The notes under the pieces are model-generated. The model was given only the letters and a program-made list of their open reading frames with translations, ran no database searches and had not been told where the DNA came from. This document shows, one piece after another, positions 7,926 to 63,792 of a stretch of DNA of 64,000 nucleotides; position 1 is the first letter of the stretch, and each line of letters starts with the position of its first letter. This DNA is from Candidatus Thiodiazotropha sp. (lineage in GTDB: Bacteria; Pseudomonadota; Gammaproteobacteria; Chromatiales; Chromatiaceae): assembly GCA_050292275.1 (NCBI GenBank), contig JBNKLI010000067.1, positions 18,718 to 82,717 of the forward strand, written 5' to 3'. The translations under genes were made by a program, and so were the position numbers.

Positions 7926-10659
7926 TGTTTGTTTCTCTGGCTTGCAACAGCCGGCTGACTTCTGTTTTCACCGAATCAAACTCTACCATCAGTTGCTCAG
8001 TCTGTTTGGATATCGCGGCTTGTTCAAGTCTCTGTACTGTATAGTCCAATGCGGGTACGCCACATGAGGATGTCGAACCGCGTATCTTGTGCGTGATTTC
8101 CTTCAGATGCTCCCAGTTCTGTTCCTTTATATGTTTCTCTATCTCTTCGAGTTGCTGAGGTAGCTCACCGCACAACTGGTTGAACATTTCACGCGCCAGA
8201 GCCCGGTCCCCGCCGGTTATGTCGAGGATCTTCCTGCTGTCTATCACAAGGGGTTGGTTGTCACTGATTTGATTGTCAATATCATGGTTTTCCAACTGCA
8301 ACATGTCATGTGATTTTTGGCTATTTAATATGTTCCTGATAACAGACCACATCTGCGGTTCGTCGATTGGTTTGAGCAGGTATCCATCCATGCCGGATTC
8401 CTTGATCTGGTTGCGCGTCGCGGGTACCACATCTGCAGTCAGGGCGATTATAGGAGTGTGCTTGTTAGCGGCTGCTTCGTTATTCCGAATGACTTCAGCA
8501 GCTTTCGTGCCTTTCATCTTCGGCATGTGGATGTCCATTAGTATCAGATCGAAATCCTTGATCAATGTCTGTGAAATGGCACTTAAGCCATCGCTGGCCT
8601 CCGTTACGTTGGCCCCGTTATTCTGCATGAGTGTACTGATAAGTTTGAGGTTGATGTCGTTGTCGTCGACAACGAGTATATTGTATTTGTCCAGCATTGG
8701 TGTTGAGGAGTGTATATTCTGCTCAACGACAGATTTGGTACTGCTTTGGGTTCCGGAGACGATCCTGTCCAGAGTGTCGGAAAGTTTGCTTGTGCTGAAT
8801 GGCTTGGATAGATAAAAGTCATCACTGATAGACTGGAACTTCTCGATGATTACCCGCTCAGAAGCACTTAACAGAACAAGAAATGGTATGCTGCAGTTCA
8901 TGCGTAGCCTACGGATTTCACTCTCTGCGAAACCTGATTCTATTTCCCTGTTTTCAAATCCCATCACTACAAAATCGAAATGGCCGTCGGGCTGCAGTGG
9001 AAAGTCGCCTTTAACGGTTTTTATGCCAAACGACTCCAATGTATGCTTAATGGCAAGGAAAGAGAGTTTGTGGATGTCGGAAACAAAAGCGCGCTTACCG
9101 ATTAGAAATGGATTGTGGGACTGGGTCTGAGTCGTCGCCGGTTTTTTCAGTGGGATTGTGACAATGAAATTCGAACCCTTTCCGGGGCTGCTGATAAGCT
9201 CAATATCTCCATTCATCGTTTGTGCCAGCTTTTTGCAAATACTCAACCCCAAGCCCGTACCTCCGTAAACCCGGCTTGTGGATGATTCGGCCTGCTGAAA
9301 CGATTCAAAGAGAAACTGTTGGGCTTTACTGTCGATGCCGATTCCAGTATCGGTTACAGAAAACTTCAATATACAATTGTTTTCTGTTTCTTCGTCAGTC
9401 ATTACCCGGATGACGACATCACCCTGATGAGTAAACTTGATGGCGTTGTTGATAAGATTGACCAAAATCTGTCTTATGCGCGTTTCGTCCCCGATAAGTG
9501 TGTTCGGTACATCGGAATAGACAAGCAGTATCAGCTCAAGACCTTTGTCATGGGCGGAAGGAGAAAGTAACACAGTCGGCTCTTCGAAGCACTCATGGAC
9601 AAGGAATGGCGTGGTTTCGGGTTCGAGTTTCCCATACTCAAGCTTTGAATAATCGAGTATCTCGTTGATTATTTCCAAAAGGTTGCTTGCAGATTTGGAA
9701 ATAGTATTTACGAGATCCCGTTGCTGTCTCGAGAGGTCAGTTTTGAGTAACAAATTGGTAAATCCCAGCACGCCATTCATTGGTGTACGGATTTCATGAC
9801 TCATATTGGCGAGGAATTCAGACTTTGCCTTACTGGCGGACAATGCGCGCTTTTTGGCCAGATCGAGTTCGACGTTTTGAATTTCCAATGCTTCCATCGT
9901 TTCGGTGAGTTCTGATGTGGCCTGATCGATTTGTTGCTGCATGGTGTCATGAGAGCGTAGTATCTGGCTGGTCATGGCGTTGAAACCCTCTTCGAGGTTT
10001 CGGATTTCACCTTTGGATACTTCGGGAACGCGCGCAGTAAGCTCACCATCGCGCATACGTGAAACAGCCTTAATTAATCTGTCGATGGGTCTGGTGACAG
10101 AGCGGCTCAGAGCCAACGAAAAAAATGCTGTGCACAATAGACCTATCGCCAACATTATAATTGAATTACGAATTATGATTTTTCGATTCTCAAAGAGTCG
10201 GGTTTTGCTGAGCGATAGATTTACTTTGCCCATGCTTCGGTTGCTGGTTTCGCGGTTGGCGGTGCCTTGATCAGGGTAGTCGGTGATATTGATGTCTTCG
10301 ACTATATAGATGGCGGGAGCAGAAAATCCAGCAATATTTTCGGGCATTTCACTATATTGTTTAACCATCCTGGATAGTAGCGAACCAGATGCATCATACA
10401 CCTCGATAGCGTAGACGTCTGCCTGTAGGAATACGGGCCTGAGACTCATCTCCAAAATAGTCTTATCCCGGGTGAAAATACCATATACGCTGATTGACGC
10501 AGATTGATTGGCTATCGATTCTCCTCTTTCATTGAAGGCTTCGTTCAGTCTGTCGAGCTGGGTGCTGATCAAATATACAGTCAAAAGCAGGGCAAGAATG
10601 AAGGCGGGAAGCAAGCCTATCATCAATGCCTGAAAGCGTAAGGATTTTAGTTTAATCAT
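7915..10659 (-). CDS. barA: Hybrid sensor histidine kinase, BarA/GacS-like (2TM-HAMP-HisKA-HATPase-REC-HPt)
   Basis: [20 protein letters not shown]...[15 protein letters not shown] (BarA/GacS-typical), [31 protein letters not shown], HPt THKIRGS. Confidence 0.88.
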
Positions 10660-33743: not shown

Positions 33744-33959
33744 GGTAGTTTCCCTTAGAATTTTTTATATTTTACAATTAATTATAATATTTATTCTGTG
33801 CGGCAAAATGCATTATAGAAGCTATGCCGGGATTGCGAAACCCATACCACCGCGATTCGAATCATCGGTCTGGACAGCCTGGCCAGGCGTTGCCAAGGCG
33901 CGGGGGGGCGATTGAAATGAAAAGTGACACCTCCCGGCCGGATCGGCGAAAATGATCTG

Positions 33960-34919
33960 ATGTCTGAAGATAACCAGAATCTCGTCGTTGCCGTCACGGT
34001 CACCTACAATGTGGGGCCTGGCTTCGAGGCGGCCCTGCACAGCTATCTGGATCAGGTCGCGAGAGTCGTCATCGTCGACAACAGCAGCGACCCGCAGTGC
34101 CGGAGCTGGCTGGCGGCGATGGCAGGCTCCCTGTCTGAGCGGGTGAGCCTGATTCAGAATGGCCGCAATCTGGGCCTCGGCAAGGCGCAGAACATCGGTA
34201 TCCGTGCTGCATTGGATGAGGGTGCCCGCTGGTTGTTGATGATGGATGACGACAGTCGTGCCGCACCCGATATGGTGTCGACACTTCTGCGGGAGGCGCA
34301 GCGGCAGGATCCGGAGGTGGCAATTGTGGCGCCCCGCTATGCTGAGCAGGGGGTAAGCCGTGACGCGCGCTATGTGGTCGCGCCGAAGGGAGGCTACCAC
34401 AGCCCCCGTTTCGAAATACAGGACTTCTCAAGCCACACGACCCTGCAATATCTCTTTATCGCGATCAGTTCCGGGAGTCTGATCCGGGCTTCGCTGTTTC
34501 GCGAGATCGGGCTCATCCGTGAATCATTCTACATCGATTACCTGGATGTGGATTTCTGTCTGCGCGCGCTGCGTGGGGGCTACCGGATCATCGCCGTAGG
34601 GGATGCGGTGCTCTATCATAAGCTGGGTGCCCAGTCGGAGCATCTGCTCTTGGGCAGGCGCTTCTGGGCGTGGAACCATCCGGTGTCACGCCGCTATACC
34701 ATCTATCGCAACCGCACCCGGATCTGGCGAGAAAATCTGTTCAGCTATCCCGGCTTTGTCTGCTACGACATATTGGCGAGCCTGCATGACCTGTTTCGTA
34801 TCCTCATGTTCGAAGAGTCGAAGGCGAGCAAGTTCCGGGCTGCACTGAAGGGGATGGGGGTGGGACTTTTCGGTGGCGGACTTTACGGTTACCCCGTATA
34901 TGGGGGTGATGACCGATGA
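33960..34919 (+). CDS. GT2 glycosyltransferase, RfbF/rhamnosyltransferase-like
   Basis: VIVDNSS, NLGLGKAQNIG, MDDDS, ISSGSLI, FYIDYLDVDFCLRA, HKLG and NH...RRY.IYRN motifs. Confidence 0.9.
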   Translation: MSEDNQNLVVAVTVTYNVGPGFEAALHSYLDQVARVVIVDNSSDPQCRSWLAAMAGSLSERVSLIQNGRNLGLGKAQNIGIRAALDEGARWLLMMDDDSRAAPDMVSTLLREAQRQDPEVAIVAPRYAEQGVSRDARYVVAPKGGYHSPRFEIQDFSSHTTLQYLFIAISSGSLIRASLFREIGLIRESFYIDYLDVDFCLRALRGGYRIIAVGDAVLYHKLGAQSEHLLLGRRFWAWNHPVSRRYTIYRNRTRIWRENLFSYPGFVCYDILASLHDLFRILMFEESKASKFRAALKGMGVGLFGGGLYGYPVYGGDDR

Positions 34920-34923
34920 AAGG

Positions 34924-35634
34924 TTATATGTTGTGACATGTCAGGCAAAGTGCGCTGCCGCTCTGGTTGACTCGTAATAATGGTGGCGCAGCGACGAACG
35001 TATTGTGAACATCGTGACATGAATTGCACTGCACTTTTCCTTTAGTAAGCATGAGTGATCCGAGGGTTCCGCTTCTTGTTGGAAGGAGCGTGCCCGTGCC
35101 ATCGTCATAACCACCGACAGTGACAGGGTTTGAAGGATCATTGAGCATGGGGTCGGCGGCGCTGTCGTAAGTGATGGAGATTGGGTGTTTACCCCTGAGG
35201 TCCGTCCCCAGGTAGTAGGTTTCCTGATTGGATATGGGGCCGGCATTGTTAAGGCCGCCGCCATAGTCATCGACCGCAACCGTTCCGTCGTGGCACGACA
35301 GGCACAGTTTACTTGGACCGGTTGGCGTGGGGTCTTCAGCGGCCTGAAGGGTTCCGTTAGTGCCGTACATCGTAAAGGTCGCCGTTGTTACCTTGTGGTT
35401 CCACAATGGCGCTTCGTCCACCGCTGCACCGCCAGGTTCATTTCCGTTTGCATCATGTGGCGTATGGCAGACGATACAGATCTCGGCTTCACTCCCAAGA
35501 CCAAGATAGCCTCTCAGGTCATGTTTTGAGCCAACGATGGAGGCGGATGCGGAGACAGCAGTCAAACTGCATATCGCGCCGATGATCCCTGTGGCTTTCA
35601 TTCTATTCGGTCGTTTTACGGTACTTCCCATCAT
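34924..35634 (-). CDS. Secreted tetraheme c-type cytochrome, OmcE-like
   Basis: Signal peptide ending ASA; four CxxCH (CIVCH, CLSCH, CNSCH, CLTCH) plus four extra His (KHDL, TPH, KHP, DVH); start could be 35601. Confidence 0.9.
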   Translation of the reverse strand: MMGSTVKRPNRMKATGIIGAICSLTAVSASASIVGSKHDLRGYLGLGSEAEICIVCHTPHDANGNEPGGAAVDEAPLWNHKVTTATFTMYGTNGTLQAAEDPTPTGPSKLCLSCHDGTVAVDDYGGGLNNAGPISNQETYYLGTDLRGKHPISITYDSAADPMLNDPSNPVTVGGYDDGTGTLLPTRSGTLGSLMLTKGKVQCNSCHDVHNTFVAAPPLLRVNQSGSALCLTCHNI

Positions 35635-36351
35635 GCATCCATCAGAGGTAACAAAAGTGACTATCCATTGAGCCGTTGGGTCAAGCCAAAAAATGGCTTA
35701 AGGAATGTTTACCTGAGATCGACGATCCATAATGCAGACGCTGACTCAAGACTTGATAAAACCATCCATCAAATATCCTTTGGAAACCGAGAGACTCGTT
35801 TGATCAATATGTCCTGTGTCGTATGGAACAGCGCATACTGATCACTAACACTGTTATAGATAATAATAACAAAGATATAGCGAGTTCTAAACTCAAAAGT
35901 GCGTGTAGAATAGGTAACGGTCGTCTGCTCGAAATGCAAAATAATTTTATGATTTTACTGGTTATTCTCTTCAATCAGCCCCATCGTTTTTGCATGTTAC
36001 CATACGGTTACAAATGGGTTGTTTTGGGCAAAACATACAAAACCAGCCATTGTTCACGGTGCCAAAATGTTATGTGGTCTTTGCGTCGGACACCAGTTAG
36101 CCGATGGTTTTACAATTCTCCGCATGAATAGTTTTGAGTTTGTTTTTTGTTTAGAGTTGGCCCAGTCGCAACCATGTTTCTGTGCTCGTGTTGCGCCATC
36201 TGCCTCAACAGAAATCGGGCACCCATAACTCAAGTTTTATTCCGTGTCTGACATCGTTTCCGTCTAGACACCCTCACCGGTCACGAACACAGGGATTCAG
36301 GATTGCTAATAGGTGGAATAGGTGCCTGGGAATTTGCAACTGGCTGTCTAT

Positions 36352-37641
36352 TCAAAAGGCTTGCATCTCATCATATGGTTGCAAGCGATAGAAACCATCC
36401 TCCAATCCCGGAAGCACCAGCTCTTTCTGGTGGTACCTCAGGATCAGGCGCATTATCGGTTTGAACGGACCGACCGGGCCGGGAGCGCCTGTCAACTGGT
36501 AGCGACCGGGTTTGAGGTTTCGCGTTCGCACCCTTGTCCCGCGCTCGGTTTGGGCGATCTCCATGTGGTCGAAAGGGGCAACCAGCGGGTCGCCGATGAA
36601 AATACCTTCACCTGGTTGTTGAACGCTTTTCCAATAGGCCTCGATCAGCGTGCTGCCGGCGCCATAGTGCTCCATCACCAGGGCGGGACTGGGGAACTTG
36701 GCTATATGATTACAGGGTTCGGCGACGGTGCCGTAACTGCCGCTGGCGCCTGCCTCAAGCCACTCCAGGGCGTTCATTTGCCTACTGCCCGATAGCTGCC
36801 CACCGGTCGAAGTGAGATGATCCGCGATCGAACCGGGTCGAAAGCGTAAAGTCTCCAGGCCATTCACCTTGGACATGCCGGTGAAGTAGAAGAGTACATC
36901 GTTGCGATTGCGCAGGCTGTCCTGATGGACGATCTCGGTATCTATCCAACCCTGCATCAGGGTGCTGATGCGTGTATAGCCGAAAGCGCGCACATTTCTG
37001 CGTTTATCACTCGTGCTCAATAGATAGGCGGTCCCTTCGGGGAGGCTGCCGTCGGCGTTCAGGCCTCTGTCGATCAATGCCTTGGCGGCGTCAAAATCCT
37101 TTGCGGCGATAGTGATAGTGGGGCGCAAAGAGAGATCGCCAAGGGGATCTGCACCCTGATAGTTGAAGTAGGGGCTCGTTCGGGTGGGCGCGCAGAGTCG
37201 ATCCGAGCACCATGCATTATCAAAACCGAAGGTGACTGCCGAGGTTATGGACATACAGCCGACCCGATAGGGTGTCAGCCAGGTCAGGGCGTAGGCCTGG
37301 ATATGCTTTGGGGTCTTTTTCAGCAAGGCATCCCTGAGTCTTGTGAATGTGGCTGGCGAAAGCGATCCATTGCGGCCATCGAATGCGAGATGCAGCAGAT
37401 TCTCTGCCGGGAGCCCCCGTGCCTGCAGGTAGTATTCACCGATCCTGACACTGAGCCGGTCCCGGTCGTTGACCACGATGGCCAGTTCCTGCGGCTGCAA
37501 CCGATACTTGGGCAGTGAGAGGTTGACCTCGCCCGCTACCGGGGATGGAGCGAGCAGCAATGTGCCCAACAGTGTCACCAGGTGCGGAGACATCCAGCGA
37601 AAAAGGCTGAGTGAAAAACGCTTGGTCAGGGGAAAATCCAT
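36352..37641 (-). CDS. TIGR03790 family protein
   Basis: VVND.D..S..IGEYY..ARG.P..N, PYRVGCMSITSA, PGSIADHLTS.GG, AGASGSYGTV.EPC and GDPL..PF motifs. Confidence 0.87.
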   Translation of the reverse strand: MDFPLTKRFSLSLFRWMSPHLVTLLGTLLLAPSPVAGEVNLSLPKYRLQPQELAIVVNDRDRLSVRIGEYYLQARGLPAENLLHLAFDGRNGSLSPATFTRLRDALLKKTPKHIQAYALTWLTPYRVGCMSITSAVTFGFDNAWCSDRLCAPTRTSPYFNYQGADPLGDLSLRPTITIAAKDFDAAKALIDRGLNADGSLPEGTAYLLSTSDKRRNVRAFGYTRISTLMQGWIDTEIVHQDSLRNRNDVLFYFTGMSKVNGLETLRFRPGSIADHLTSTGGQLSGSRQMNALEWLEAGASGSYGTVAEPCNHIAKFPSPALVMEHYGAGSTLIEAYWKSVQQPGEGIFIGDPLVAPFDHMEIAQTERGTRVRTRNLKPGRYQLTGAPGPVGPFKPIMRLILRYHQKELVLPGLEDGFYRLQPYDEMQAF

Positions 37642-37643
37642 TG

Positions 37644-39821
37644 TCAGCGAGGCAGGGGAACAAGCGCGCCGGGCTCTTTCATGATTACTGCCGATCCATC
37701 CTTGGTGAGGTCAAAACGAAGGGGGGACCGGGTGATCGGCCACTCCCCCTTGAGATCGATCTGGGCCTGGTCTCCGTTGAAAACGAGATAGCTGTATTTA
37801 CCGTAGTGAGGGAGTTTTCTCGCCAGTCGCATCACTGCCTCCTCGGAACAGCCGACTACCCACGCCATGGCCTGGCCGCTTGCCGGGCTGCGTTGGCTAA
37901 TGACGAAACTGTGGTTCTTGTACGGATAGCTGGTGCCTGCAAGCGTCAGCTTGTCCGCATGCCGTGAAACGGGCAGCCCGGCGAGCCGGGTCAACATTTC
38001 CTGGTGAAACAGATTCTCTCTGCCCAGCAGCCAAACCGGGCGATCCCGGGGTAGCCGCTCGAGTTCGCTGTCGAGCCGGATCTCCGCCTCATCGTAGCCT
38101 TCCCGCCACTGCCGGGCCAAGGTCGCATAGGCCTGCAACTGCGACTTATCCGACTTCGACGGGAGAACGATCAACGCCCGCTCGCTGCCGAACAGGCGAC
38201 TCAGGGTCGCTGGGGTTTCTGCAGGGTCGAGCAGCCTGAACATATCGAACCAGGGATCGATCTGGAACAGGCGGGGTTCGGCGGGCAGTTCGAGCGCGAA
38301 CGGGGTCTCCCTTTCATTGCTGATGAGCACCTTTTGTATGACTTGCCCGTTACTCAGCTGGGCGTAGAGCGGGACCTCCAGGGAGAAGGGGGCGGAGGAT
38401 TGGTGTTGCCTGAGCGTACCCCGGATCAGGTAGCCCTGCTTACTCTGTTCCACGCCAAGCCCGTCGACCGCCAGTCCCGGGGCGCCGCTTCGTTCGGTCC
38501 ATTGGCGGAAGAATGCTTCGAGGGAGTGCCCGCCGGACTTCTCGAAGGCCCGTTGCAGATCGCCATACCCGGCTGTTTTGAAGCGGTTCTCCCGGAAGAA
38601 AATACGCAGGCCCTCGATGAAGGCCTGGTCACCGAGGTGGCGGCGCAGCATGTGAAACAACATCAGGCCCTTGTCATAACCCACGGCCTGGCTCGCTGTC
38701 GAGTGACGGGCCCTGAAGCGGGTCAGCGGAAAGTCGTTTTCGGAACGCACGAAATCAGCATAGCGTTTCAGTGCCGTGCGCCGGTGATTGGCTCCCTGGC
38801 CGCGCTGTTCGGCCAGCAGATGGTCCGCCAGGTAACTGGTCAAACCCTCCGACCAGTTGCCGGACTGGTAGTCGATATAAACACTGTTTCCCCACCAGTT
38901 GTGAAGAATCTCATGAGGATAGGATGTATGCAGGATGAATGGCAGGCGTAGTACACGTGGTCCGAGAAGGGTGAACGAAGGCATCCCGTATCCGCTCTCC
39001 CAGAAGTTTTCCACCAGGGCGAACTTGGCGTAGGGGTAGGCACCGATCAGTGTCTGGTAGAGCTTCAGATAGTGCTCGGTCGCCTGCAGGTAACGTTCGG
39101 CGAGCGCGGCATCTGTCTGGCGCAGAAACACCTGTGCCTCGACGCCATCCGAAGACTTGCGATAGAGGTGGTAGGGGGCCGCAATCAGGTAGATATCGTC
39201 CTGGGGCGAGGTCTCACGCCAACGGACCAGGCTCCTGTTTGCGCCTTCGCTGATTTCCGGGCCTTCACCCTGACTCACAGCCAACCAGGCCTGCGGCAGC
39301 TCCACTTGCAGATCGAAGCTGCGCAGCGTATCGGCGAAGTAGGGATACCAGCCGCTCGAGGCATCCAGATAGACGCCCTGTGGTGAAATGGTGCCGGTGA
39401 GGCGCTCGCTGACGCGCCCCGGGCTCTCGTTCTGCCTGGTCAGCTCATGTATGATCTTCCCGCCGTACTCCAGGGTGAATTTGTCTTGATCTTCAGGCAT
39501 GCTGATCTGGTATTCGATCAACGGGCCACTGTCGCCGAGCGGTCCGATCTCATCGAGGGTGACGCCCGCCGTCAGGCTGCGTGGATTGAGGCCGTGATGG
39601 AGCGCGAATCGTTGCCGCTTTGGATTTCCATTCACGGATGGCGATCTATCCCGCGCCTTCGCCAGGGTGATAGTATCTGTTGCCCGCAGCTGCTGGCTGT
39701 CCGGATCGAGACTGACCTGCAATGCATGGTGGACAGTCGCGGCGCCGAAAAGCGGTTTGCAAAACAGTGCCAGCCACAGCGGGATGTAACAGATCGGTGT
39801 TTTTCTGGTCATATGGCGCAT
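37644..39821 (-). CDS. Exported M1 family (gluzincin) aminopeptidase
   Basis: VENFWESGYGMPSFTL, HEILHNWWGN (HExxH), NWSEGLTSY (third ligand) and VGYDKG; signal peptide. Confidence 0.9.
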   Translation of the reverse strand: MRHMTRKTPICYIPLWLALFCKPLFGAATVHHALQVSLDPDSQQLRATDTITLAKARDRSPSVNGNPKRQRFALHHGLNPRSLTAGVTLDEIGPLGDSGPLIEYQISMPEDQDKFTLEYGGKIIHELTRQNESPGRVSERLTGTISPQGVYLDASSGWYPYFADTLRSFDLQVELPQAWLAVSQGEGPEISEGANRSLVRWRETSPQDDIYLIAAPYHLYRKSSDGVEAQVFLRQTDAALAERYLQATEHYLKLYQTLIGAYPYAKFALVENFWESGYGMPSFTLLGPRVLRLPFILHTSYPHEILHNWWGNSVYIDYQSGNWSEGLTSYLADHLLAEQRGQGANHRRTALKRYADFVRSENDFPLTRFRARHSTASQAVGYDKGLMLFHMLRRHLGDQAFIEGLRIFFRENRFKTAGYGDLQRAFEKSGGHSLEAFFRQWTERSGAPGLAVDGLGVEQSKQGYLIRGTLRQHQSSAPFSLEVPLYAQLSNGQVIQKVLISNERETPFALELPAEPRLFQIDPWFDMFRLLDPAETPATLSRLFGSERALIVLPSKSDKSQLQAYATLARQWREGYDEAEIRLDSELERLPRDRPVWLLGRENLFHQEMLTRLAGLPVSRHADKLTLAGTSYPYKNHSFVISQRSPASGQAMAWVVGCSEEAVMRLARKLPHYGKYSYLVFNGDQAQIDLKGEWPITRSPLRFDLTKDGSAVIMKEPGALVPLPR

Positions 39822-39849
39822 AGTGAGTCAATTGTAATGGGAGAAGCTG

Positions 39850-40971
39850 GTGCTCTATTCTCGTTTGCTGTTTGTTATCCTGGCCTGCACGATGGCGGCT
39901 GTCCATGCCGATGAAGACGCACCGGGTCCGGATCCGGTGATCGATCTCTCCGCGATGATCGATGTCTCGACCCTGATAGAGAAGGTCTCGGACCGACAGG
40001 TAGTGTTCGTCGGCGAAAGCCATGATCAGTATCAACACCACCTCAATCAGCTGGCGGTCATCAAGGGCCTGCATGCAAAGCACTCAGACCTGGCAATCGG
40101 GCTGGAGTTCTTTTTTCAGCCCTACCAGGCGGTGCTCGATCGCTATATCGCCGGGGAGATCGAAGAGGCCGATCTGCTTCGCGAGACGGAGTACTTCAAT
40201 CGCTGGCGGTTCGATTATCGGCTCTACCGGCCCATTTTCCAATACGCCAGGGAACATGGCATTGCGTTGATCGCACTCAACCTGGAGAGTGAAATCACCA
40301 GACAGGTGGGAAAGGAAGGTATCGAGAGTCTGTCCGAGGAGTTGAAGCAAAGGCTTCCCGAGGAGATCGACCGGGATAACGAGGAGTATCGCAAGCGGTT
40401 GCAGTCTGTCTTCGATTCCCACCCCCATAAGGAGGGCAGGAGTTTCGAAAACTTCCTCGATGTGCAGCTGCTCTGGGACGAGGGTATGGCGCAGCGTGCG
40501 GCGCAGTGGCTGCAAGCGCATCCCGATTCCCACCTGGTCATCCTCGCAGGGGTCGGCCACGTGATCTACGGTGACGGCATACCCAAGCGTCTGTCGCGCA
40601 GGTTCGACGCTACTCAGGCAATAATCCTCAATGTCGATGCCGTGGCGGGATTGAGTCAGGCGATGGCCGATTATCTGATCGTCGCGGAGCAAAATCAGCT
40701 GCCGCCTTCGGGGAAACTCGGCGTGCTGCTCGATACCGACAATACCCCGCTTAGCATCAGCGGTTTCGTTGAGGGCAGCGGCGCCGAGGAGGCGGGTGTG
40801 GAGAAGTGGGATCGCCTGCTCTCCATCGACGGCCAGCCGATCAGTAGTTACGCCGATGTGCGCATCGCCCTGATAGACAAGGGGGTTGGCGACCAGGTGG
40901 AATTGAAAGTGGAGAGAGATCGTGTGCTGCTTGGTACGATAGAAGAGACCCTGCAGGTTACCCTGCATTAG
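39850..40971 (+). CDS. ChaN family (haem-binding uptake) protein with C-terminal PDZ domain
   Basis: VVFVGESHD...HH..Q, IGLEFF..PYQ..LD, YRPIF.YA....I..IALN, QLLWDEGMA and GVGHV.YG.GIP.R; PDZ: GAEEAGV...D.LLSIDG. Confidence 0.9.
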   Translation: MLYSRLLFVILACTMAAVHADEDAPGPDPVIDLSAMIDVSTLIEKVSDRQVVFVGESHDQYQHHLNQLAVIKGLHAKHSDLAIGLEFFFQPYQAVLDRYIAGEIEEADLLRETEYFNRWRFDYRLYRPIFQYAREHGIALIALNLESEITRQVGKEGIESLSEELKQRLPEEIDRDNEEYRKRLQSVFDSHPHKEGRSFENFLDVQLLWDEGMAQRAAQWLQAHPDSHLVILAGVGHVIYGDGIPKRLSRRFDATQAIILNVDAVAGLSQAMADYLIVAEQNQLPPSGKLGVLLDTDNTPLSISGFVEGSGAEEAGVEKWDRLLSIDGQPISSYADVRIALIDKGVGDQVELKVERDRVLLGTIEETLQVTLH

Positions 40972-61323: not shown

Positions 61324-63792
61324 ATGAGCATGTCTTGTTTTAGAAACGCCGTCCAGCCGCTGTTATTGTCCTGCTTCCTCGCATCATGCGGATCGGGGGG
61401 AGGTGGCGACAACTCCACCGATCCATCCGCTGCCGATACTGAAGCGCCAACCGCCGTTTCAAACCTGTCAGACTCGAGCACTGGCCTCTCTGTGACGCTG
61501 ACCTGGAGCGCCGCCACCGACAACGTCGGCATCGACTATTATCAGATAACGCGTAATGGTACCACCGTCGGGACCACCACAACTACATCCTTCACCGACA
61601 GCTCGGTGAGTGAAAACACCGACTATACCTATCAAGTCTCCGCTTACGATGCCGCCGGCAATGCCGGTTCGGCATTATCGATAGCTGTATCCGTGCCGGC
61701 CAACAGCGGCTCAGAGGGGCTAAAGGCGTTTCCCTCCGCGGAGGGTTTCGGTTCGAATGCCAGCGGTGGCCGCAACGGGCAGGTGGTCAAGGTAACCAAT
61801 CTCAATTCCGGCGGCACAGGCAGTCTGCAGGCGGCGTTGGATCTCGATCTGCCTCGCATCATCGTGTTCGAGGTCAGCGGAGTCATCGAGGGCGATATTC
61901 TGATTCCCTATGGAAATGTCACTATCGCCGGTCAGACTGCGCCGGGAGCCGGTATAACCATCCATGGACGGTTAACCTGCCAGTACAGCGACGCACCCGA
62001 CAACATCATTGTTCGCCATATTCGCATACGCGCCGATCATTCGACCAATCCGGGAGTGGCAGGCGAACAGTACGATGGGATTCAGTGTTCCAGAAGTTCG
62101 AATCTGATCTTCGATCATATCTCCGTCTCGGGCGGAGTGGATGAAACGCTCGATATTTATGCGGCCACGGATGTGACTCTCCAGTGGTCGAGCGTGAGCC
62201 GCGCCGCTACCAGCGGGCACCCTGAGGGCAATCATAATTACGGAGTGATCAATGGTCCGGACGGTGCCAGAGTCAGCATCCATCACAATCTGTTTGCCCA
62301 TAACGGCAATCGGAACCCGGCGCTCGCCAATGGGCCGGCCGAAATCGTCAATAACGTCGTCTATAACGTACGTCACGGTTTCGTTCACCATAATCCGGCG
62401 ACCGGTGATTTCAATGTCATCGGCAACTACTACAAACAGGGGCCGGAAGACTCGCTGCATCCCTTCTTTTTCGATGATGAGAACACCGGTGGCGGTACTC
62501 CCCGGCTTAGCTATTATCTCGAAGACAACTATGTCGACGATCCGGGCGATTATGTAGGCAGTGTCGACAACCCCTGGCTCACTCCCTTCGTACACAGTAG
62601 TTTCGAGGGTATCGACTGGGGCTGGGACTCGAGCGTCGCCCGCTCAGCCGGCAAGCATGTCTTTACCCAACAGATTGGCACTATCTATGATGCACAGATC
62701 AATTATGATCTGGTGTTGAGCCGGGCCGGGGCCTTCCCGAGAGACCTGATCGACAACGACAACCAGGTCGAAGTGAACAGTCGGACCGGGTCCTGGGGCG
62801 CACGAATACCATCGGATCTGATGCAGGGTCTTAGCGTAGCAGCTCCACCTGTTGACACAGACGACGATGGCATGCCGGACGCCTGGGAAGAGAGTCATGG
62901 TCTGTCAAATACCACTGATGACCACAACCGCGTCATGGCCACAGGCTATACAGCCATCGAAGCGTATATCAATGAGCTGGCCGATCAACTGATCAACGGC
63001 GGCAGCAACCAGACCAACGATCCGCAAACGCTTGATGTCAATGTCGGCCCGGTGACCGGTGGCAACTGGTATCGCCCCGGTGTCGATACGACCTGGGCCT
63101 GGCAACTACAAGGTGCCTTGAACAGCGGCTATTCAGTGGATCTCTACGACATTGATCTGTTCGATACCTCCGCCGCCACCATTGCCGCGCTACAGGCGGA
63201 CGGACACAGAGTGCTCTGCTATTTCTCCGCGGGCAGTTACGAAAACTGGCGTGAGGATGCCTCCGCTTTTCAGGCGGCGGACCTGGGCAACACCTTGAGT
63301 GGATACGACGATGAGCGCTGGCTGGATATCCGTTCCAGCAGCGTGTTTGCGATCATGCTGGCGAGGCTGGACCTGGCGGTCAGCAAGGGCTGTGACGGCG
63401 TCGAGCCGGACAACATGACCGGCTACCAGGAGAGTAGCGGTTTCACCCTGAATGCGAACGATCAACTGGCGTTCAATCGCAATCTGTTCAATGCCGCGCA
63501 CAACCGGGGCCTGACGGTGGCGTTGAAGAACGACCTGGAACAGGTCGCAGAACTGATCGACTATGCCGACCTGATGGTCAATGAGCAGTGTCATCAATTC
63601 AGCGAGTGCCACCTTGTGCTGCCATTCATCACTGCAGGCAAGCCCGTACTCAATGCCGAATACCTTGCGAGCTATCAAAACAATCCAAACACGGTTTGTG
63701 CCGATGCGCGCCAGGCCGATATCCGAACCCTGGTCCTGTCGGTTGATCTGGATGATTCATTCTATTTCAACTGTGATACGGATTACCCCTGA
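61324..63792 (+). CDS. Lipoprotein: FN3 + PL1 pectate-lyase-like + GH114 endo-alpha-1,4-polygalactosaminidase-like domains
   Basis: Lipobox LASC; FN3 (DTEAPT..VTLTWSAATDNVG..YTYQVSAYDAAGN); PL1 (AFPSAEGFG..GGR, TIAGQTAPG, IFDH, HHNLFAH..RNP, D.DGMPDAWE); GH114 (WAWQL, DIDLFD, CYFSAGSYENWR, KGCDGVEPDN, LKND, NEQC). Confidence 0.9.
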   Translation: MSMSCFRNAVQPLLLSCFLASCGSGGGGDNSTDPSAADTEAPTAVSNLSDSSTGLSVTLTWSAATDNVGIDYYQITRNGTTVGTTTTTSFTDSSVSENTDYTYQVSAYDAAGNAGSALSIAVSVPANSGSEGLKAFPSAEGFGSNASGGRNGQVVKVTNLNSGGTGSLQAALDLDLPRIIVFEVSGVIEGDILIPYGNVTIAGQTAPGAGITIHGRLTCQYSDAPDNIIVRHIRIRADHSTNPGVAGEQYDGIQCSRSSNLIFDHISVSGGVDETLDIYAATDVTLQWSSVSRAATSGHPEGNHNYGVINGPDGARVSIHHNLFAHNGNRNPALANGPAEIVNNVVYNVRHGFVHHNPATGDFNVIGNYYKQGPEDSLHPFFFDDENTGGGTPRLSYYLEDNYVDDPGDYVGSVDNPWLTPFVHSSFEGIDWGWDSSVARSAGKHVFTQQIGTIYDAQINYDLVLSRAGAFPRDLIDNDNQVEVNSRTGSWGARIPSDLMQGLSVAAPPVDTDDDGMPDAWEESHGLSNTTDDHNRVMATGYTAIEAYINELADQLINGGSNQTNDPQTLDVNVGPVTGGNWYRPGVDTTWAWQLQGALNSGYSVDLYDIDLFDTSAATIAALQADGHRVLCYFSAGSYENWREDASAFQAADLGNTLSGYDDERWLDIRSSSVFAIMLARLDLAVSKGCDGVEPDNMTGYQESSGFTLNANDQLAFNRNLFNAAHNRGLTVALKNDLEQVAELIDYADLMVNEQCHQFSECHLVLPFITAGKPVLNAEYLASYQNNPNTVCADARQADIRTLVLSVDLDDSFYFNCDTDYP

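Follow-up and report, generated by a model that had tools for sequence, protein, structure and literature searches.

To our knowledge, filament formation has been demonstrated for just two members of the OmcE family of tetraheme c-type cytochromes. In both OmcS and OmcE, one heme is ligated by a His residue of the neighboring subunit (PMC9473688; PMC12954529), and the two proteins have heme packing alone in common, with no recognizable similarity in sequence or overall fold (PMC9473688). OmcS and three close hexaheme homologs are encoded in one Geobacter sulfurreducens genome (PMC12954529). A minimal marine-type omcE cluster, described together with the OmcE of Desulfuromonas soudanensis (DSOUD_2954; PDB 9YUQ), consists of genes for two multiheme cytochromes, two propeller lipoproteins, OmcE and a large barrel (PMC13712944). 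In the same report, the bundling loops of 9YUQ were found not to be conserved among homologs, OmcE homologs with porin and propeller genes were assigned predominantly to Thermodesulfobacteriota and Pseudomonadota, and likely nanowire formers were restricted to omcE homologs with a porin nearby (PMC13712944, mBio 2026).

Another cluster, uet, is known from electroautotrophic Gammaproteobacteria (Candidatus Tenderia electrophaga, Tenderiales). Its parts include the tetraheme cytochrome UetA, the 28-strand barrel UetC, the NHL proteins UetH/I and the undecaheme cytochrome UetJ. The authors raised the possibility of conductive polymers and proposed that the system is used for electron uptake, not export (bioRxiv 10.1101/2022.05.06.490989). 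Our literature search found no paper that discusses uet together with OmcE. Sulfur oxidizers with iron-reduction cytochromes have already been catalogued, and the coupling of sulfide oxidation to the reduction of solid Fe(III)/Mn(IV) has been proposed (PMC12545173). The same literature search found no paper linking Thiodiazotropha to multiheme cytochromes or extracellular electron transfer. Members of the Thiodiazotropha group are best known as symbionts of clams.

The DNA analyzed here is a stretch of 64,000 nucleotides (the window) of contig C67, from a binned genome of 3.75 Mb (G000; 152 contigs, 78% complete, 2.5% contaminated). Genes for DsrA, SoxB and two large subunits of RuBisCO are present in this genome, and the host is therefore considered a sulfur-oxidizing autotroph. 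RuvB encoded in the window shares 90% identity with the RuvB of a Candidatus Thiodiazotropha sp. genome, against 73-80% with those of Woeseiaceae and Thioalkalispiraceae, and the host therefore probably belongs to Candidatus Thiodiazotropha. Among the ~60 ORFs of the window, a single gene contains CxxCH motifs. It occupies positions 34924-35634 of the minus strand, where the reading frame is open and encodes a 236-aa protein, whose named homologs include proteins from Thiodiazotropha. An alternative start, M12 (35601), would yield a 225-aa form, which corresponds to database entry P0002.

An initial annotation, made from the nucleotide sequence, had described this gene as a candidate OmcE-like nanowire subunit. 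Translation of the minus strand recovered the ORF and every motif listed there, i.e., in order, SIVGSKHDL, ICIVCHTPH, PLWNHKVTTATFTMY, SKLCLSCHDG, LGTDLRGKHP, QCNSCHDVH and the C-terminal PPLLRVNQSGSALCLTCHNI. The proposed signal peptide is likewise visible by eye: residues 1-31 (35542-35634, minus strand) form a probable Sec-type N-terminus with a K/R-rich start, a hydrophobic core, and SASA followed by S. Cleavage is expected after SASA, such that the mature protein would begin with SIVGSKHDL, and this boundary aligns with the N-terminal region of the two OmcE structures, 7TFS and 9YUQ. The four heme sites, identified in the sequence, in phmmer alignments and in an alignment of 118 homologs, are CIVCH (C53-H57; 35464-35478), CLSCH (C111-H115; 35290-35304), CNSCH (C203-H207; 35014-35028) and CLTCH (C230-H234; 34933-34947), all on the minus strand; the last of them ends two residues short of the stop codon. 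All 16 of the 16 heme-binding residues are invariant in the 118 homologs.

The initial annotation had also counted four spare His residues. Five His residues are in fact located outside the CxxCH sites (H38, H60, H80, H150 and H210), and four of these are invariant in the 118 homologs and align with the four non-motif His residues of OmcE: His38, residue 7 of the predicted mature protein (35521-35523); His60, a distal-ligand candidate following heme site 1 (35455-35457); His150, a candidate located in GTDLRGKHP and aligned with DHP in Geobacter OmcE (35185-35187); and His210, a candidate following heme site 3 (35005-35007), each on the minus strand. The fifth, H80, was ruled out as a heme ligand because this position is Arg both in Geobacter OmcE and in the in-cluster paralog of the same genome, which is described below.

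Homology to OmcE, originally proposed from shared motifs, was borne out by database searches. A phmmer search against all PDB sequences gave exactly two matches, both at E ~1e-17 and nearly full-length: the D. soudanensis OmcE bundle (9YUQ; E 6.2e-18, residues 13-235), which is the best sequence match, and the G. sulfurreducens OmcE nanowire (7TFS; E 7.6e-18, residues 21-235). The four CxxCH sites and the His residues of KHDL, TPH, (D/K)HP and (K/D)VH are in register in these alignments, and the Geobacter motifs listed in the initial annotation agree with the 7TFS sequence. Pfam and NCBIfam detected generic doubled-CxxCH and c7/c3 similarity only, at the C-terminus. The best-scoring Pfam matches are restricted to residues 198-235, with PF14522 slightly over its cut-off (29.8 vs 24.8 bits) and PF14537 under it (23.2 vs 25 bits); a compact cytochrome c7/c3 domain (PF14522, PF14537) was rejected, as the match represents generic heme-motif similarity.

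An AlphaFold2 monomer model built from the 118 homologs was of moderate confidence (pLDDT 69.7). When it was compared with the PDB by Foldseek, 7TFS was the sole match below E 0.001 (E 2e-5, TM 0.42-0.47), and VIA-align superimposed the two with Z 8.9 and an rmsd of 3.8 Å over 164/202 residues (runner-up Z 2.5). The fold is therefore that expected of an OmcE homolog, with a superposition that is only moderate because the model contains no hemes. An oligomer prediction with two mature copies and four of the eight hemes needed scored 0.04 against a mark of 0.42, a value that counts neither for nor against polymerization. The window protein is an OmcE homolog with four heme sites and four distal His residues, and because all four distal His residues are present, so is the inter-subunit ligand, whichever one it is. 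Judging from its position, His38 is the likeliest candidate for ligating a heme of the adjacent subunit; VIA-align places it on OmcE His31, the second ordered residue of the 7TFS chain.

Compared with G. sulfurreducens OmcE (GSU0618), the protein has a similar length, the same order of four CxxCH sites and four distal His residues, and, as in OmcE, an N-terminal KHDL and a last CxxCH at the very end of the chain. However, identity is only ~28-35% and the loops differ. The window host, a gammaproteobacterium, is a sulfur-oxidizing autotroph rather than an Fe(III) reducer, and the gene is located outside an omcE cluster, with no glycosylation gene set linked to it by descent. In the 64-kb window, no NHL gene, further CxxCH gene or large outer-membrane barrel adjoins the cytochrome gene, and the only barrel, a TonB receptor, is 21 kb away. 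The barrel, two propellers and two multiheme cytochromes that mark a nanowire cluster (PMC13712944) are accordingly not found near the window gene.

The initial annotation had suggested a genome search for conduit genes and paralogs, and these were identified by searching G000 by tblastn with the full cluster of a congener locus, L001. A complete OmcE-type set is present on contig C128, where it is interrupted by the contig end, and continues on contig C146. The order on C128 is a five-heme OmcE-like gene, a sigma-54 response regulator, a four-heme OmcE paralog (57% identical to the window protein), an NHL gene, a gene for a 707-aa protein, a second NHL gene, and a multiheme cytochrome that is cut at the contig end and whose L001 ortholog has 11 CxxCH motifs; C146 continues with another multiheme cytochrome and a b-type cytochrome. 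The 707-aa protein is predicted to be a large beta-barrel: its model, built from 45 homologs, is all-beta (pLDDT 88.8), contains >30 long strands and gave matches to the barrels of LptD, MtrB and ushers; the C-terminal residue is Phe. No member of the MtrB/PioB porin family was found in G000 (78% complete), and the genome encodes many further multiheme cytochromes.

The C128/C146 set matches the minimal marine-type cluster described with DSOUD_2954. The genome differs from that system in having two four-heme paralogs (one off-cluster), a sigma-54 regulator and five-heme relatives; in containing several related subunit copies it is similar to genomes with the OmcS family of wire subunits. The set also has the gene content of uet, with UetA (ALP54622.1) compared by description only, and both hosts are autotrophic gammaproteobacteria; uet additionally has a PPIase, three triheme c7 proteins and a cupredoxin. 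Thus, the cluster in trans, and not the window locus, corresponds to uet in gene content. The earlier suggestion that this organism may build OmcE-type filaments is plausible because the complete OmcE-type set is present in its genome, but the window gene itself, on which that suggestion was based, is outside such a cluster.

Across many phyla, the OmcE-like family is almost always tied to NHL machinery, since an NHL gene lies near the OmcE-like gene in 77 of 80 homologous loci, usually directly downstream. A second NHL gene occurs in 76/80 loci and a barrel was detectable by tblastn in 57/80; a ~570-aa multiheme cytochrome was matched in all 80 and is full-length in most loci with enough flank. 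In a maximum likelihood tree, the stray copy and three metagenomic relatives form a clade (support 100/96; 70-78% identity, four CxxCH in every member) that is sister to the in-cluster four-heme genes of the same genus (99/95), with joint support of 100/99. Because of this position, the window gene is considered to derive from a cluster subunit gene of the same or a close lineage. Either an old duplication or a transfer between relatives could have given rise to it. Comparison with the ortholog on metagenome contig L003 gave dN/dS 0.155 at dS ~1, and thus the stray copy is maintained by purifying selection.

With family membership, conserved ligands, purifying selection, insertion history (detailed below) and the presence of machinery in trans established by the analysis, we put at roughly one in two (0.5) the probability that the window protein is an alternative OmcE/Uet-type filament subunit that relies on the C128/C146 machinery in trans. 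Sec export, which the N-terminus predicts, and signal cleavage would leave SIVGSKHDL as the N-terminus, and four hemes would be attached in the periplasm with bis-His ligation. The protein would then cross the outer membrane through the barrel and NHL propellers that C128/C146 supply in trans, and may polymerize head-to-tail, alone or mixed with the in-cluster paralog. A heme of the next subunit would be completed by one of the distal His residues, probably His38 in the N-terminal arm, and the outcome would be a continuous extracellular heme chain. Such a wire could either deliver electrons to remote solid acceptors, in the manner of Geobacter, or import them, which is the function proposed for uet. 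Several observations count against the filament reading: the link is to machinery in trans, in a binned genome that is 78% complete; no upstream or promoter similarity ties the stray gene to the C128 cluster; and the confidence of the monomer model is moderate (pLDDT 69.7).

A possible, though less probable, alternative is that the duplicate turned soluble and now serves as a non-polymerizing tetraheme carrier, periplasmic or at the cell surface, that shuttles electrons to or from an outer-membrane conduit and other multiheme cytochromes. Such a function would agree with the monocistronic gene apart from all assembly genes, with the many other multiheme cytochromes in the genome that would need partners, with the generic c7/c3 and doubled-CxxCH similarity that is all Pfam sees, and with the view that only porin-linked OmcE homologs are likely wire formers (PMC13712944). 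However, the N-terminal His and the other filament-type ligands are strictly conserved, the nearest relatives in the tree are in-cluster subunit genes, and a monomer would be one heme ligand short if its arrangement is as in OmcE (PMC9473688; PMC12954529). We accordingly prefer the alternative filament subunit.

The immediate neighbors of the cytochrome gene are a convergent GT2 glycosyltransferase gene, a TIGR03790-family gene, and genes for an M1 peptidase, a ChaN-PDZ protein and an FNR-like reductase. In five related species (G011, G012, G014, G015 and G022), the block of ChaN, M1 peptidase, TIGR03790, GT2 and FNR-like genes is kept without the cytochrome; the gap between the TIGR03790 and GT2 genes is 25-110 bp in four of these (G011, G012, G015 and G022), and the ~0.9-kb gap of G014 contains no cytochrome remnant. 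The cytochrome occurs at this site only in the window genome and on metagenome contigs L003 and L004, whose protein is 76% identical. Thus, synteny identifies the gene and its ~0.6-0.7 kb of AT-rich upstream DNA as a lineage-specific insertion of 1.4 kb, bordered on the left by the TIGR03790-family gene (36352-37641, minus strand; NCBIfam E 1e-64) and on the right by the GT2 gene (rhamnosyltransferase-like by Pfam and NCBIfam; 33924-34919, plus strand). Both gene junctions are bridged by contigs from independent metagenome runs, and the locus is therefore not an assembly artifact; near-identical DNA was found in sediment and mangrove metagenome runs of several studies. As a separate observation, the order of the divergent ChaN-PDZ gene, the M1 peptidase gene and the TIGR03790 gene (window positions 36352-40971) is shared by five or more species of the genus, regardless of the cytochrome. 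The window also contains, at 61324-63792 on the plus strand, a gene for an 822-aa exported protein with an fn3 domain, a pectate-lyase-like region and a GH114 glycoside hydrolase domain, which may act on exopolysaccharide or a biofilm matrix.

Given this arrangement, the cytochrome might be thought to form a module with the flanking GT2, TIGR03790, M1 peptidase and ChaN-PDZ genes, i.e., to be a glycosylated or otherwise processed surface cytochrome. The GT2 stop codon is 4 nt from that of the cytochrome, TIGR03790 lies upstream on the same strand, and Geobacter OmcE has densities that likely represent glycosylation, with glycosyltransferase genes following many omcE clusters (PMC13712944). Nevertheless, we regard this explanation as very unlikely. 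The cytochrome-free block in five related species means that the flanking genes predate the insertion, and this block, together with the difference in GC3 (0.56 in the cytochrome gene vs 0.67-0.73 in its flanks), makes the adjacency to GT2 and TIGR03790 an accident of insertion. A functional link to these two genes was rejected, as it is largely refuted by synteny. The least credible explanation is a redundant or decaying duplicate without a role of its own, which might be suspected from the 57%-identical paralog in a proper cluster and from the absence of RNA runs among the listed holders of the stretch, but the reading frame is intact, all ligands are kept, dN/dS against the L003 ortholog is low, and four CxxCH sites are retained in each member of a clade with 70-78% identity.

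The region upstream of the cytochrome (35635-36351, minus strand; 717 bp, 42% GC) was aligned with the orthologous region of L003 and scanned for promoters. Several blocks are conserved between the two regions despite ~24% protein divergence, which suggests a long leader or a regulatory region. The scan gave one sigma-70-like site (35891-35863), a consensus match only. No sigma-54 promoter was found in 35635-36351, either at ≤2 mismatches or with a relaxed pattern, no Rfam family was detected in 34700-36500, and the region has no similarity to that upstream of the C128 paralog. L003 has an extra 128-aa ORF (9045-9431), hydrophobic by eye, between its TIGR03790 and cytochrome genes; this ORF is absent from the window, a search of the window genome gave no homolog, and no remnants of it or of the cytochrome were found in the gaps of the relatives.

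A more far-reaching form of the filament reading, which we consider rather doubtful, is that Thiodiazotropha-like sediment sulfur oxidizers build OmcE/Uet-type wires from interchangeable subunits, with the stray, separately promoted copy serving as the main or a condition-specific subunit and the machinery encoded elsewhere. If so, such a chemoautotroph could pass electrons from sulfide oxidation to solid acceptors at a distance or to partner cells, or could take up electrons, and the wires would link sulfur and metal cycling in a group best known as clam symbionts. Polymerization by itself, if true, would mean long-range extracellular electron transfer in a sulfur-oxidizing autotroph of the Thiodiazotropha group, and would bear on the proposed coupling of sulfide oxidation to Fe(III)/Mn(IV) reduction (PMC12545173) as well as on electron uptake of the uet type.

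The locus had initially been considered a candidate for a new system. This view was not sustained: omcE clusters have already been reported in Pseudomonadota (PMC13712944) and uet in Gammaproteobacteria, and the window gene is an unlinked paralog in a housekeeping neighborhood. Since the family and the cluster are widespread and already described, the finding is an extension rather than a discovery. What is new is the host clade, probably Thiodiazotropha, and a conserved subunit paralog outside the cluster. OmcE-family subunit genes can thus leave their cluster and yet stay under selection, and surveys that require a nearby porin would therefore miss some subunits.

Additional multiheme genes were observed in G000 and its relatives. 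Two OmcE-family paralogs with five CxxCH motifs each (C61:9241-9939 and C127:21551-22216) are located outside any NHL/barrel cluster; five-heme OmcE-like proteins have been singled out as a possible new 'leaky' nanowire family (PMC13712944). At C146:1-13759 (L107), multiheme genes with 5, 3, 6, 3, 6 and 3 CxxCH motifs are interleaved with three b561-type cytochrome b genes and followed by an NHL propeller gene and a gene for an 895-aa cytochrome with 20 heme sites. This arrangement, which follows the OmcE-type cluster, resembles a repetition of quinol-oxidase and cytochrome modules. Three genomes of other species of the genus (L109, L110 and L111 of G004, G012 and G003, respectively) have a more divergent variant of the cluster, in the order NHL gene, four-heme OmcE-like gene (37-40% identical), three-CxxCH gene, ~2.4 kb with no tblastn match, NHL gene, and gene for a 602-aa 11-heme cytochrome. 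The ~2.4-kb gap presumably corresponds to the barrel, and the variant, with its triheme gene, looks even closer to the uet cluster. Finally, two adjacent, slightly overlapping ORFs of 1693 and 528 aa at C25:6440-13025 (L108:1441-8008, minus strand) contain 67 and 21 CxxCH motifs. They represent either one ~88-heme giant cytochrome split by a frameshift or two giant multiheme cytochromes, and in either form they are remarkable in a sulfur-oxidizing gammaproteobacterium.
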